Assembly (NCBI GenBank): GCA_019058315.1
Contig: JAHPZH010000007.1
Coordinates: 96,001-160,000 of the forward strand
DNA from: Candidatus Helarchaeota archaeon
GTDB lineage: Archaea; Asgardarchaeota; Lokiarchaeia; Helarchaeales; RDOG01
Reading direction: 5' to 3'
DNA length: 64,000 nucleotides
The position numbers were made by a program, and so were the translations under genes. The notes beneath the pieces are model-generated. The model was not told the DNA's origin and did no database searches. It saw only the letters and a program-made list of their open reading frames with translations. Shown here in pieces: positions 58,888-64,000 of this stretch; the stretch's first letter is position 1, and the number at the start of each line of letters is the position of its first letter.

Positions 58888-59988
58888 TTAATTTTCAGAT
58901 CTATTTGAAAAATTTTTAGTAGAAATTCCCCTAGTTTCTAGCCAATTTTTTGTAGTTCCACTAATAATCAAGTTTGAATTCTTTAGATCGTTTAAATTCT
59001 TCGATTTAGTTAAAAACATGGCAATTTTAAGCTCTTTAATGAATTTTTCCATTAATTCTTTTAATTTATTATAATCATCTTCATATGCGGGTTTTAAGAA
59101 AGGAAGCGAAATTCCAACCAAATCTGCACCAATAGCAATAGCTTTTGCAATATCCAATCCATTTCGAACACCACCAGAAGAAATCAAATTAATACCAATT
59201 GTAGATGCCTCAATAGTGGCAACAGCAGTCGGAATTCCCCAATCCCAAAATGTTTTTGTAATTTCTGGTAAAGTTTTTACTTTATCTTTTGATCTATAAT
59301 ATTCCACAGCTGCCCAACTAGTTCCACCAACTCCACTGATATCAACTGCATCTATTTCAAGGTTTTTTAGTAACATTATTTCTTCTTTTGCTATCCCTGC
59401 TCCAGTTTCTTTAACTATTAATGGAATTTTTATATCTTTTTTGATTTTTTGGAGTCCATTTATAACTCCTTTATAAAATGGGTCTCCCTCACTCTGTAAA
59501 CATTCCTGTAATGCGTTCAAATGAATGGTAAATGCATTAGCTTGGATCATTTTAATTGCACGATTGATTTCAAACATACCATACTCATCTGAAATTTGAG
59601 GAGCACCAAGATTACCTATAATAAAAGCATCGGGAGCTGTCTCTCGTGCAATATTATAAGTATATTCCAAACTAGGATCTTTAATTGCGGCTCTTTGGCT
59701 TCCTAGAGCAAGACTAATGTTGAATTCTTTTGCAAGTTTGGCCAAATTTTTATTTATTTTTTTGCTAACTTCATGTCCTCCAGTCATTGCATTAATTAGA
59801 ATGGGACTATTAAATTGATGATTGAAAATATTTATTGAAGTATCAATTTCATTAAAATCAATTTCTGGAAGAGCTCGATGGATAAATTCAATATCTTGAA
59901 ACCCAGTTTTTTTATAATTTGCTTCTATATTCTCTTCTATACAAATTATGATATGTTCGAATTTACGATTTTCTATTTCTTCAGCCAT
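58888..59988 (-). CDS. fni: Type 2 isopentenyl-diphosphate isomerase
   Basis: RKFEH, NAMTGG, GSQR, HLNALQE, KETG, GGTSW. Confidence 0.96.
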   Translation of the reverse strand: MAEEIENRKFEHIIICIEENIEANYKKTGFQDIEFIHRALPEIDFNEIDTSINIFNHQFNSPILINAMTGGHEVSKKINKNLAKLAKEFNISLALGSQRAAIKDPSLEYTYNIARETAPDAFIIGNLGAPQISDEYGMFEINRAIKMIQANAFTIHLNALQECLQSEGDPFYKGVINGLQKIKKDIKIPLIVKETGAGIAKEEIMLLKNLEIDAVDISGVGGTSWAAVEYYRSKDKVKTLPEITKTFWDWGIPTAVATIEASTIGINLISSGGVRNGLDIAKAIAIGADLVGISLPFLKPAYEDDYNKLKELMEKFIKELKIAMFLTKSKNLNDLKNSNLIISGTTKNWLETRGISTKNFSNRSEN

Positions 59989-60000
59989 TTTTCATCTGTC

Positions 60001-61281
60001 CTAACTCTTTTTACCTCTTCCTAAACGTTCATGAGAAATTGATAAATGACCAGCAGATAATGCTGCACAAAGACTTATTTCACCGGCTAATGCGGTCGAT
60101 GTAATAATTTCTGCAAATTTTACTGCCATAGTACCAGGGGGTTTATCCTTATAAAAACCTGCACACCCTAAAATAGATAAACCTTCTTTTTGGGTGGGTA
60201 GATGAGTTCCTCCACCAGTAGTACCAATTTCTAATGATGGTAAAAGAAGGGACATATATAAATCATTATTTTCTAAAATTTCTGCAGTTAATATTCCCAT
60301 TGAGCTCTCTACTACTTGTGCTGGATCTTGTCCAGTAGCTAAAAAAATTGCTGCTATAATATTTGCTACATGAGCGTTAAGTCCATAGGCAGCCGCTTGT
60401 CCTGATCCGATATATATTTTTCGGAATACAACTTCAGCAATAGCTTCAGGTGTGGTCTTTAATGTCTCTTTAATATAAGATTTTGGTAAAACAACCTCAG
60501 CCTGTACTGTTTTACCCCTTCCTAAAATATAATTAAGTGCACTAGGTTTCTTATCAACACACATATTTCCTGAAGTTGCGATTAACTCACATTTAACAGG
60601 TCCTTTTTCTATAATGAAATCAGCTGCTTTTCTTGAACCCGTTGTTATCATATTCATTCCCATTGCATCTGCGGAAAATACTAAAAACCTTATAAATAAA
60701 CTTCTTCCTACTATCCAACTCTGGATATCCTTTAATATTGCGAAAGGATCGACATTTTTAAAAATTTCAGCAATTTTTTCAAAATGATCATTAATCCATT
60801 TAACCAAGATTTGACCATTTTCCGTGAATGGTGGTTCTATTATTTTAAAAACTGGAGCCCTTGCCATCATATTTTTTAAAACTTTTACATTACATCCCCC
60901 AGCATTCGTTATGATAGAACAACCTCTGTTTACAGATGCTACTAATGCACCTTCTGTCGTACATAGTGGGACATAATAATCACCTTTCGCAACTTCCCCA
61001 TTAACTTTTATAGGTCCTGCACACCCTATTGGTATAGAAGCACATCCAATCGGATTTTCTATGTTTCTGGAGGCAGTTAAATTCATATCTATTGAATAAT
61101 TCCCAATATTTTCTAATTTAATATGTTTAAGTTTTTCCAAAGCTTTTCTACGTAATGTTGTTGCTTTTTCAATGTCACCATCTACAAATTTTTCCACTTG
61201 ATATAATTTAATTTCACCAAGGACTATTTTTTCGATTATTTCTTGTTCATTCATTGGATGCAACTCAGAACTATAGATCAT
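60001..61281 (-). CDS. hmgA: HMG-CoA reductase (NADPH, class I)
   Basis: NIENPIG, TTEGALVAS, DAMGMNM, GQDPAQ, GGGT, AGEISL. Confidence 0.96.
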   Translation of the reverse strand: MIYSSELHPMNEQEIIEKIVLGEIKLYQVEKFVDGDIEKATTLRRKALEKLKHIKLENIGNYSIDMNLTASRNIENPIGCASIPIGCAGPIKVNGEVAKGDYYVPLCTTEGALVASVNRGCSIITNAGGCNVKVLKNMMARAPVFKIIEPPFTENGQILVKWINDHFEKIAEIFKNVDPFAILKDIQSWIVGRSLFIRFLVFSADAMGMNMITTGSRKAADFIIEKGPVKCELIATSGNMCVDKKPSALNYILGRGKTVQAEVVLPKSYIKETLKTTPEAIAEVVFRKIYIGSGQAAAYGLNAHVANIIAAIFLATGQDPAQVVESSMGILTAEILENNDLYMSLLLPSLEIGTTGGGTHLPTQKEGLSILGCAGFYKDKPPGTMAVKFAEIITSTALAGEISLCAALSAGHLSISHERLGRGKKS

Positions 61282-62930
61282 TTCAGCTTTATCATATCTT
61301 TTGCGAAATATCTTTTTATTAGAGAAATATATTTTTTCCCTGTTATTTCGTCCGGATTGTGTAATCTTTGAGAAAATGGATATATATTATTTAAATATTT
61401 CTTATATAGTTCTGTTACTTCGAAAATAGCACAACCTCCTCCAGCTCCGGAACCATACCAACCTGTCAAAATCTTGTCTCCTTCCATCAATTTAATAGTT
61501 GGGTTATCTGGATTTTCAAATCCAACTTTTTTTGCGGTTTCTTTATCAATCTTAATAGCATGTTCTGGTTCATTCACTATTTCAGCTAATCCGAACATTG
61601 TAGCTGCGGAATAAGTATTGCCCAGATAAATCACTGGTTTTCCAATAACACAAGGTTTCAATCCAGCTTCAATTCTACTTTTATCATCTAATTTATATTT
61701 CTGAACTTCTTTTTTCTCAAAATTATAATTGGGTTGATGAAAAGTGGCAGCAACTATTTCTTTAAGATCAATATTCATCATTTTTAAAGTCTTATTAATG
61801 GCTGCCTCTTGATATGCAAAATATGATGGGTTTCCAGTAAATGCATGACCATGAAATGGATAATTTTGATATTTACGACGAGCAAAATCTGGATGATCCC
61901 CTACATGTGTATTCATTGTTAAGTATTCTAAAATAACATTATATTTTGAAATAACCATACACACAGCTCCAGCTCCAGTATCTAAGTCTAAAGGATCGCC
62001 AGGAGATCCTTGAGCCACATCCGCCCCAATTAATAATGCAGTATCTATTTCTCCAGTTTTAATCATTGAAATGGCTGGCTTAATCTGCATTCCAGTTGCT
62101 ATACACGCAAATTCTGCATCATAAACAATAATGTTTTCGGGTGCACCTACGTAACTCATTACATTTGTAGCCGAGGGCTTTACCGAATATGGTTTGGATT
62201 CTGAGCCTACAACAATCATACCTATTGTCTCAACAATTTCAGGAGGTAATAATGAAAGTGCATCAGCAGCAGCATCCATGGCTAAAGTACTTGTATCTTG
62301 GTCCCAATTTGGAACGGTTACTTCTTTAACTCCCAAACCTTTTAAAATATAATTAGGATCGATATTCAAGTGTTTTGCCATATTTTGAGCAGTTGTTTTA
62401 TATCTAGGAATTGAAACTCCTATAGAAGCGATTCCGGGATTTTTACATTCAATTAGTTTATCTGTGAAAGGTATCTGTTTTTTTCTATTTATTGGTTTAG
62501 GTTTAAATTTAACCCCATAATATATTGCGCCATCTGGGTTATTATCTAATATTCGCATAGTTGGTTCTACTTCTTTACCGATCCATTCTTGAACAGAAAA
62601 TATTTTATTTGCTGGAATATCAATATCTGTTAGTTCAGTAGGAATTCTTACTTCAGATCCATCAAAATCTATCTTAATAATTCCCACTGCCTTATTTTTC
62701 ACCCATTCCAAACCGATTTGAGATTCTCTAGATATACTAATAGCATCAATAACTCCATCTTGTACTAGAGATACAGTATTTATTGTTCCACCTCTTCCAC
62801 ATTCAGGACAAATTTGTTTAATTTTAGAAGAAAAAAATATTTTGCCGCATTCTGAATGTTTATAACCTATTAATCTATGTCTAATATCCCTAGTTCTAGT
62901 ATAATAAGGTAAACCATAACGACTCATCAT
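61278..62930 (-). CDS. DUF35 (zinc ribbon/OB-fold)::HMG-CoA synthase fusion
   Basis: aa 1-143 RLIGYKHSECG..CPEC..LTD..YGVKF; aa 165-550 GSESKPYSVKP, EFAC, FHQPN, GNTYS, YGSGAG. Confidence 0.9.
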   Translation of the reverse strand: MMSRYGLPYYTRTRDIRHRLIGYKHSECGKIFFSSKIKQICPECGRGGTINTVSLVQDGVIDAISISRESQIGLEWVKNKAVGIIKIDFDGSEVRIPTELTDIDIPANKIFSVQEWIGKEVEPTMRILDNNPDGAIYYGVKFKPKPINRKKQIPFTDKLIECKNPGIASIGVSIPRYKTTAQNMAKHLNIDPNYILKGLGVKEVTVPNWDQDTSTLAMDAAADALSLLPPEIVETIGMIVVGSESKPYSVKPSATNVMSYVGAPENIIVYDAEFACIATGMQIKPAISMIKTGEIDTALLIGADVAQGSPGDPLDLDTGAGAVCMVISKYNVILEYLTMNTHVGDHPDFARRKYQNYPFHGHAFTGNPSYFAYQEAAINKTLKMMNIDLKEIVAATFHQPNYNFEKKEVQKYKLDDKSRIEAGLKPCVIGKPVIYLGNTYSAATMFGLAEIVNEPEHAIKIDKETAKKVGFENPDNPTIKLMEGDKILTGWYGSGAGGGCAIFEVTELYKKYLNNIYPFSQRLHNPDEITGKKYISLIKRYFAKDMIKLK

Positions 62931-62944
62931 AATATCCCACCAAA

Positions 62945-64000
62945 TTATTTTTCCAATATATGTATCATTTGTTTTGTTCCAGAAGCAGATTGTTCATGTA
63001 ATAAAGCAATTTTTGGGTTATTTTCTACTTGGTTTCTTCCTTTACCATTTAATTGATCAACTAATTGAACCAATCTACTCAATCCAGCTACACCCGGTAC
63101 ATTTCCATAAATATAAGTGCTTCCACAAGGATTTAATATAAAAGATCCACCTGTATCATTTTCATAAATTATATGTTTATTTCCGTAATCATCAGGTAAT
63201 GCTTTTAATTTATTTGAGATTTTTGGAAGTGCTGGATATTCTAAAATTTCTAATCCTTCCAAAGCTAATGGACCAACAATAGTGACTTTTGTATCCACAC
63301 TTACTAAATCCAAATCATTTGGAGTAATTTGTGCCTTTTCATAGGCAATATTTGCTGCTCTACTTAAAGCAGGGTAATGAAAAATATTATTTTGATTCCA
63401 AAATTCTGAGGGTCCAGTAGTACTCACTGAAGCTTTAATATAGATAGGTGATTTATATTCTCGAGCCCTTTCTACAGAGGTTAATAGAATAGCAGCCGCA
63501 CCATCATTTTTAGTAGAAGCGAAGTCATAAAATGTTAAAGGATCATAATATAATCTACTATCTGCATTTTCTTTTAAGTAATTAAATTGTGATAATTTCT
63601 TTGGACCTCTTGTCGCATTATATTTATCATTAATTGCGATTGATATAAGATCTTTATGAGTAGTTTTTGTTTCATGTAAATATTTGGAAGCTAAAGTTGC
63701 ATATACATTTTGCCACTTCCAATTCCATAGCCTTAAATTGGGATCTATGCTCTTATCGGAAACATCAACTGTATATTGTTGGTCAGAGCGTTTATCGCAA
63801 CCAGCTACAATTACAAATTCACATTCATTTGATTTAATCGCACTTATAGCAGCATTTAAAGCCTCACTGCCTTTTGAAAAACCATGCATTCTTGACATTA
63901 TCCCAAAATTAGAAGCAAAAATTGACTCCCATGCCAATTGACCTTTTTTCCCAATAACTGCAGATGCAGTAGCACTTGATAAGAATATTCCATCAAAATC
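62945..64000 (-). CDS. Thiolase-like protein (archaeal acetoacetyl-CoA thiolase family), catalytic residues degenerate; 5' end outside window
   Basis: DPLT.YD..DGAAA, AA..AY..A.ITP.DLD, LNP.G, QL.G...NQV; frame open to the window edge (DFDGIFLSSATAS..). Confidence 0.85.
   Translation of the reverse strand, partial: DFDGIFLSSATASAVIGKKGQLAWESIFASNFGIMSRMHGFSKGSEALNAAISAIKSNECEFVIVAGCDKRSDQQYTVDVSDKSIDPNLRLWNWKWQNVYATLASKYLHETKTTHKDLISIAINDKYNATRGPKKLSQFNYLKENADSRLYYDPLTFYDFASTKNDGAAAILLTSVERAREYKSPIYIKASVSTTGPSEFWNQNNIFHYPALSRAANIAYEKAQITPNDLDLVSVDTKVTIVGPLALEGLEILEYPALPKISNKLKALPDDYGNKHIIYENDTGGSFILNPCGSTYIYGNVPGVAGLSRLVQLVDQLNGKGRNQVENNPKIALLHEQSASGTKQMIHILEK

Follow-up and report, generated by a model that had tools for sequence, protein, structure and literature searches.

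We found that the mevalonate operon of a Helarchaeota genome carries, directly upstream of a gene for a DUF35::HMG-CoA synthase (HMGS) fusion, a thiolase-like gene whose product, P0001, lacks the catalytic motifs of acetoacetyl-CoA thiolases (ACATs). Because the motifs are lost and yet the gene is under strong selection beside DUF35::HMGS, P0001 is most likely kept as a non-catalytic partner of HMGS. More specifically, we favor, with a probability of roughly 0.6, the explanation that this dead thiolase is a pseudoenzyme subunit needed for the assembly and for the shared CoA site of HMGS. The preliminary description had proposed a thiolase retained as a scaffold, CoA-binding or regulatory subunit; the loss of canonical chemistry, the retention of the gene, its co-inheritance with the fusion and its predicted docking onto DUF35 all agree with this idea, although its role may extend beyond these kinds.

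The thiolase/HMGS/DUF35 complex is regarded as a conserved archaeal answer to the unfavorable thiolase step of membrane-lipid synthesis. An Asgard lineage that dropped the thiolase activity and kept the subunit would represent a natural experiment on what ACAT contributes beyond catalysis.

Gene context and replacement of the catalytic residues

The window analyzed is a stretch of 64,000 nt (G000:C7:96001-160000) from a genome of 5.8 Mb with a GC content of ~30%, assembled in 12 contigs and 94% complete. The thiolase-like gene lies on the minus strand with its stop at 62945 and overruns the window end by 162 nt; in the whole genome, the complete gene has 405 codons (window-equivalent positions 62945-64162; L001:1501-2718) and encodes a 405-aa protein of the SCP2-type thiolase fold. 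The intact frame noted earlier is therefore present over 351 codons in the window and 405 in the genome, and the order described for the region downstream (a 14-nt spacer, DUF35::HMGS, HMG-CoA reductase and type-2 isopentenyl-diphosphate isomerase) was found in full (Table 1). The motif in the spacer is consistent with co-transcription of the thiolase-like gene and DUF35::HMGS.

Table 1. Features of the mevalonate operon within the window
Feature	Position	Strand	Evidence or remark
Thiolase-like gene, putative pseudoenzyme, 3' 351 codons	62945..64000	-	Open frame to window end; motif loss; thiolase fold
Spacer between thiolase-like gene and HMGS start codon	62931..62944	-	14 nt; GGTGGG Shine-Dalgarno-like motif
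DUF35::HMG-CoA synthase fusion (P0002, 550 aa)	61278..62930	-	6esq_I and 6esq_E matches
HMG-CoA reductase	60001..61281	-	PF00368, 2.5e-116; overlaps HMGS stop by 4 nt
Type-2 isopentenyl-diphosphate isomerase (fni; FMN-dependent)	58888..59988	-	PF01070, 4.9e-22; position same in relatives

In the whole genome, a polyprenyl synthase gene precedes the thiolase-like gene, and genes of the G1P-dehydrogenase-like, UbiA and geranylgeranyl-reductase types lie further upstream, their names being based on gene size and order in annotated relatives. The lipid operon is itself preceded, 5-8 kb past the window end, by two genes at G000:C7:165010-168224 (-), which encode a 711-aa ADP-forming acetyl-CoA synthetase-like protein and a 336-aa DRTGG/Pta-like protein; this arrangement is repeated in the relative L015.

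The motifs CxS, HDxF and GHx are signatures of ACAT (PMC12960953), and each of them is absent from P0001. In place of the first, P0001 reads RMHGFSKGS (residues 91-99), in which F95 occupies the position of the nucleophile Cys85 of the Methanothermococcus thiolase (6esq_A). In place of the HDCF motif it reads SVDTKVT (residues 288-294), with D290 for His and K292 for Cys (D290-T-K292-V), and in place of GHPVGATG it reads GNVPGVAG (residues 353-360), with N354 for the oxyanion-hole His, H336 (G353-N354). These correspondences were obtained with phmmer against PDB 6esq_A, with MAFFT in an alignment including canonical thiolases (two of them from the same genome) and with hhalign against a canonical thiolase profile, and the three methods agreed on all residue correspondences at the three sites. 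The phmmer register around HDCF was taken from the match line, and it matches both the MAFFT and hhalign alignments and the numbering of H284 in PMC12960953. The altered strings quoted in the preliminary description, and the loss of catalytic residues that it had read from them, were accordingly borne out by direct observation.

In the archaeal complex, the single substitution H284A in HDxF abolishes HMG-CoA formation (PMC12960953). Since the catalytic Cys and His are lost from P0001, no acetoacetyl-CoA should be made by the known mechanism, and the conclusion that P0001 would be unable to perform canonical thiolase chemistry is supported at the level of sequence.

We further compared the 34 aligned members of the family at these positions. 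D290, K292 and N354 are invariant (34/34), which argues that the substitutions arose neither by chance nor from an error in a single sequence. Position 95 is occupied by Phe in 28 members, Tyr in three, Ser in two and Ala in one, and never by Cys. K97, H93, E390, Q391, K397 and Q398 are nearly invariant, even in members with only 37% identity; of the four 15-mers with the highest conservation in the family, three are the ex-catalytic loops.

Selection, distribution and synteny of the family

The ~35 homologues, with 37-90% identity, form a single clade on a long stem. A word-indexed search yielded 31 proteins at 51-90% identity; most of those with a named source are Helarchaeota, together with one Lokiarchaeota and one Promethearchaeota. 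In an exhaustive search of representatives, only five clusters matched at E <= 1e-30, and the next matches were ordinary thiolases (E 2e-25, 29% identity). The family clade received an SH-aLRT support of 100, with a stem of 1.13 substitutions per site and short internal branches. P0040, the nearest outgroup, was considered as an intermediate, with Cys replaced by Asp and both His kept; it was rejected as such, for it falls outside the family clade and sits with a DUF35 gene beside Hdr-like genes, with no mevalonate context.

We computed dN and dS (Nei-Gojobori) for the closest pair, the own genome and L014, dS being saturated in more distant pairs. The thiolase-like gene gave dN = 0.054, dS = 0.58 and omega = 0.093, a value like those of its active neighbors in the same pair (HMGS, 0.092; HMGR, 0.074; GGPPS, 0.091). 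Purifying selection on an old family indicates that this is not a recent pseudogene. The recent pseudogenization that the preliminary description had raised as a counter-argument is thus not what we observed: with an omega of 0.09, a family reaching down to 37% identity, an old clade and replacement residues that do not vary, the gene has been retained.

Four of the seven species-representative genomes of the window's own order carry it; in a fifth (G251) there was no family match, and the fused HMGS gene there is cut by the contig end, so that its neighbor is out of view. Elsewhere in the phylum, 250 sampled genomes yielded no P0001 match at E <= 1e-40, and in a pattern scan covering the genomes of 185,579 species the matches were limited to two Helarchaeota MAGs and two contigs assigned to bacterial MAGs. 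Family members were seen on contigs of MAGs labeled Deferrimicrobium and Thermodesulfobacteriota (L019, 58% identity; L021, 49%), which are probably mis-binned archaeal contigs rather than carriers of bacterial genes.

Wherever flanking DNA was available, the dead thiolase gene lies directly upstream of DUF35::HMGS in a lipid/mevalonate operon. The order GGR-UbiA-EgsA-GGPPS-dead thiolase-DUF35::HMGS-HMGR-IDI2 is shared by the own genome, L003 and L015, and L014 and L016 agree with it as far as their contigs reach. In these four relatives, the thiolase-like gene stands between GGPPS and a 546-551-aa DUF35::HMGS; L003 and L015 have the full set of upstream lipid genes, and contig ends interrupt the upstream genes of L014 and L016. 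HMGR comes next wherever the contig extends that far, and IDI2 follows HMGR in L003, L014 and L015.

Remote relatives within the family, with 37-39% identity in its alignment, also adjoin DUF35-HMGS. In L004, the fused DUF35::HMGS is downstream of the thiolase-like gene. The mevalonate operon of L005 includes isopentenyl-phosphate kinase, GHMP kinase and UbiX and UbiD homologues, and its DUF35 and HMGS occupy two overlapping frames (L005:7203-8709), which represent a frameshift, an assembly error or a true split. In L018, from a GC-rich organism, a partial gene at the contig start bears the C-terminal signature of the family just upstream of a 539-aa fusion. Across relatives, the amino-acid identity of the thiolase-like protein tracks that of HMGS, and the homologue lists of P0001 and P0002 were drawn from largely identical contigs. 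An ACAT-like gene, DUF35 and HMGS are thus co-located in a mevalonate context, as expected for an archaeal HMGS/ACAT/DUF35 complex, and these observations support co-inheritance of the dead thiolase with the DUF35::HMGS fusion.

The HMGS partner, the predicted complex and related systems

Residues 163-459 of P0002 matched 6esq_I as the best PDB match (5.7e-51), the HMGS domain occupying ~163-550, and residues 16-144, a DUF35 zinc-ribbon/OB region, matched the DUF35 chain 6esq_E (1e-6). The catalytic tetrad E-C-H-N (E273, C276, H398 and N438) is invariant in 60 fused and unfused HMGS sequences; judged by this intact tetrad, the partner of the dead thiolase is a live enzyme. The fused HMGS differs from unfused archaeal HMGS in several respects: DFWRR has become DF[A/M]RR, HGGRFTG has become HG[Y/H]..TG, a Lys no longer follows the catalytic Cys, and a conserved, family-specific insert of ~27 aa follows residue 458 (~459-485). 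With its pocket-lining motifs changed and an insert gained, the module may work unlike the canonical complex.

Several minor observations concern HMGS genes and their annotation. The first zinc-ribbon ligand of P0002 reads His (HSEC...CPEC). Neither half of P0002 exceeded the Pfam threshold, and its copies are mostly named hypothetical protein in the databases because Pfam fails to recognize the HMGS; the dead thiolase is named thiolase or acetyl-CoA C-acetyltransferase. Given these names, metabolic reconstructions of Helarchaeota are likely to mis-assign the first two steps of the mevalonate pathway. A second HMGS of any type was not detected in the own genome. A different HMGS of 545-547 aa, which matches Pfam HMG_CoA_synt_N/C, was found at L011:625-2262 (-) and L012:1522-3165 (+), in a sister family of the same order (G240) and in another family of the same class (G040). 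It bears a C-terminal extension of ~130 aa with a Cys-rich, zinc-ribbon-like motif. Its neighbors are uppS and a gene that probably encodes a GHMP kinase; a thiolase gene is not among them. The occurrence of this type beside the fused type indicates two unlike HMGS systems in one order.

To examine the fold of P0001, an AlphaFold2 model was built from a 102-row alignment. The model shows the five-layer alpha-beta-alpha-beta-alpha thiolase fold (pLDDT 92.5, pTM 0.93), and Pfam Thiolase_C_1 matches the sequence at 2.4e-10. The closest solved chains (Foldseek, E 2e-29 to 9e-28, TM 0.81-0.85) were 6et9_C and 6esq_A, the ACAT of the Methanothermococcus thiolase/HMGS/DUF35 mevalonate complex, which outranked SCP2 thiolases, BbsB, PhlC, Ltp2 and Sal.

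A 1:1 model of P0002 with P0001 had an ipSAE of 0.77, compared with 0.00 for the best of three controls. Of the solved complexes, 58 of 80 attained this mark, as did two of 110 mismatched pairs; these counts are only rough because our own alignments were used. At least 93% of the contacts were shared between runs, with partner pLDDT of at least 85. DUF35 residues 13-141 were predicted to contact thiolase residues 141-163, 201-210 and 251-260. Among all 15-mers of the family, conservation peaks in the contacted stretch 140-154, and it is higher at interface residues than elsewhere (0.79 versus 0.69, Mann-Whitney P = 0.007). P0001 is thus predicted to dock onto the DUF35 domain of P0002. The complex prediction suggested in the preliminary description upheld its idea in part: DUF35-thiolase docking was recovered, whereas the confident contacts ran through DUF35 only, with none between the HMGS and thiolase bodies, and because a like complex has already been solved, the score may reflect likeness rather than binding.

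These results suggest the following model. P0001 would derive from the archaeal mevalonate-pathway ACAT and would have dropped its chemistry while keeping the thiolase fold and the DUF35 docking surface. The passages of PMC12960953 that cite Vogeli 2018 state that archaeal HMGS has no activity on its own, that ACAT by itself is insoluble, and that the interface of HMGS and ACAT holds a fused CoA site. The dead thiolase may be retained because archaeal-type HMGS works only within the HMGS/ACAT/DUF35 assembly, in which the ACAT subunit would supply architecture and half of the shared CoA-binding chamber. In the Helarchaeota lineage, DUF35 would have become covalently fused to HMGS, the fusion gripping the dead thiolase, and acetoacetyl-CoA would be drawn from a free pool.

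The module resembles the Methanothermococcus complex in its three parts, gene adjacency and mevalonate-operon context, and also in structure, with HMGS matching 6esq_I, DUF35 matching 6esq_E, the thiolase model matching 6et9_C/6esq_A and the predicted DUF35-thiolase docking matching as well. However, the Helarchaeota ACAT subunit lacks CxS, HDxF and GHx, and the HMGS carries DUF35 as an N-terminal fusion and has altered pocket motifs and the ~27-aa insert. The sequence predicts that channeling of thiolase-made acetoacetyl-CoA could not operate as described for the solved complex, its first step being expected to fail.

The bacterial PhlABC and MucABC complexes and the ACAT/HMGS-DUF35 complex of P. 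fluorescens (PMC12960953) are likewise tripartite, with one thiolase-fold subunit silenced yet retained, and one of them also has an HMGS-DUF35 fusion. In PhlABC/MucABC, however, it is the HMGS-like subunit that is dead, having lost E-C-H-N, and the Cys of ACAT is kept; in other words, they are the mirror image of the Helarchaeota module, in which the ACAT appears dead and the HMGS live, and which, unlike them, stays in primary lipid metabolism. This mirror relationship suggests that the architecture is kept whichever subunit stays active. Full-text searches, whose coverage was incomplete, found the mirror case and no published description of a dead ACAT with a live HMGS or of the P0001 family.

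Another comparison concerns the aldolases Ltp2-ChsH2(DUF35) and Sal-Shy(DUF35) and the T. brucei SCP2-thiolase-like protein, which share with P0001 the SCP2-type fold, the lack of the nucleophile Cys and a DUF35 partner, and which were among its structural matches (6ok1, 9myr and 5ab6). These proteins carry YDHF, YDCY or YDCF, whereas P0001 reads DTKV, and Ltp2/Sal act in steroid side-chain degradation, whereas the context of P0001 is mevalonate and lipid synthesis. An Ltp2/Sal-type retro-aldolase was rejected, the catalytic Tyr of Y-D-[HC]-[FY] (PMC12329534) being absent.

Alternative explanations and the supply of acetoacetyl-CoA

A possible alternative, although one we hold considerably less probable than a non-catalytic partner, is that the former thiolase pocket was refitted with a conserved charged and polar set (H93, K97, D123, K124, D290, K292, N354, E390, Q391, K397 and Q398) and now binds a ligand or catalyzes a different step, for example by sensing acyl-CoA allosterically, gating the pantetheine arm or feeding HMGS through a reaction that needs no Cys. 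The replacement residues are (near-)invariant in the 34 members, as catalytic residues usually are, and their invariance down to 37% identity hints that the site has been rebuilt to serve its own function. In a merely passive plug, drift might be expected, as at position 95, whereas D290, K292 and N354 do not vary. The concentration of the most conserved 15-mers in the ex-catalytic loops, the long stem followed by slow evolution and the change of the HMGS pocket motifs in step point in the same direction, and there is precedent in the Ltp2 and Sal aldolases, in which the thiolase fold is put to use with a different set of residues (PMC12329534). However, the ex-catalytic loops are also the structural core of thiolases, so their conservation may be structural, and no known catalytic constellation matches that of P0001, including that of the aldolases. 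A decarboxylative route from malonyl-CoA was dropped as unlikely, because a carboxyltransferase (PF01039) was sought in the 94%-complete genome and none was found. It is conceivable, at similarly low odds, that a site composed of D290, K292, K97, N354, E390-Q391 and K397-Q398 binds or acts on a CoA thioester and controls the entry of catabolic acetoacetyl-CoA into lipid synthesis. If true, such a site would give Helarchaeota a direct link between hydrocarbon/beta-oxidation metabolism and the synthesis of isoprenoid membranes.

In the KS-CLF (KS-alpha/KS-beta) pairs of type II polyketide synthases, a Cys-less subunit of the thiolase superfamily is the obligate partner of an active condensing enzyme. 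By analogy, the dead subunit could anchor DUF35::HMGS and pair with a catalytic paralogue encoded elsewhere, so that acetoacetyl-CoA would still be channeled. We consider such a heterodimer improbable. Thiolases are dimers, and a Cys-less paralogue directly adjoins a Cys-bearing one at G000:C11:453955-456331, which suggests heteromeric pairing of active and inactive thiolases; several other Cys-less paralogues exist in the genome. However, none of the examined loci has an active thiolase gene linked to the operon, and identity to the nearest paralogues does not exceed 27%, which makes a conserved dimer interface doubtful. The likeness to KS-CLF is one of analogy only: CLF is a close KS paralogue that heterodimerizes and shapes chain length, whereas the partner of P0001 is HMGS, bridged by DUF35.

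It is still less probable that P0001 remains a thiolase by means of relocated catalytic residues such as C122 or C346. C122 (of GCD) lies beside D123, the counterpart in the alignment of the general-base Glu/Asp of PhlC/MucB, and is Cys in 29 of the 34 members, but it is Val, Thr or Phe in the other five; C346 (of NPCG) is Cys in 17 of the 34 and otherwise Ser, Asn or Thr. These are the Cys of AGCD and NPCG that the preliminary description had singled out as potential substitutes, and neither is conserved; indeed, the 34-member alignment contains no invariant Cys column. Both oxyanion-hole His are also lost, and the H284A result in the canonical complex argues against such a rescue.

Finally, decay of the gene or an assembly artefact has practically no chance of being correct: it is favored by the loss of motifs and nothing else, and it was refuted by the conservation of homologues with the frame intact in all of them and dS saturated at 37% identity, by an omega equal to that of active neighbors, by the tree and by the confident AlphaFold2 model.

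If P0001 is a non-catalytic partner of HMGS, acetoacetyl-CoA would have to come from elsewhere, as the preliminary description had supposed, and the genome offers candidate sources. It contains 19 thiolase-superfamily genes, namely P0001 and 18 others, together with a 3-hydroxyacyl-CoA dehydrogenase, which makes these enzymes plausible sources. Two of the thiolases are canonical ACATs with Cys, HDCF and GHP intact (C1:374236-375396 and C5:149595-150740). Candidate sources of the pool are, we infer, the other thiolases, among them those of the two ACAT/DUF35 clusters, and the beta-oxidation of acyl-CoA derived from hydrocarbons. Three MCR-alpha (alkyl-CoM reductase-like) homologues of 602-612 aa (G000:C5:377506, C3:198869 and C11:316902) would fit a hydrocarbon-oxidizing Helarchaeota lifestyle.

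Two further features of this inventory were observed. Six other SCP2-type paralogues lack the nucleophile Cys but have HDxF and/or GH; one of the six is the Cys-less member of the adjacent pair on C11. The clusters at G000:C1:374236-376861 (+) and G000:C5:149595-152204 (-) each consist of a canonical ACAT, an HMGS-like protein and a separate DUF35; the HMGS-like proteins lack the catalytic Cys and Glu, and the clusters thus share the polarity (silent HMGS) of PhlABC, MucABC and the P. fluorescens complex (PMC12960953), opposite to that of the P0001/P0002 module.
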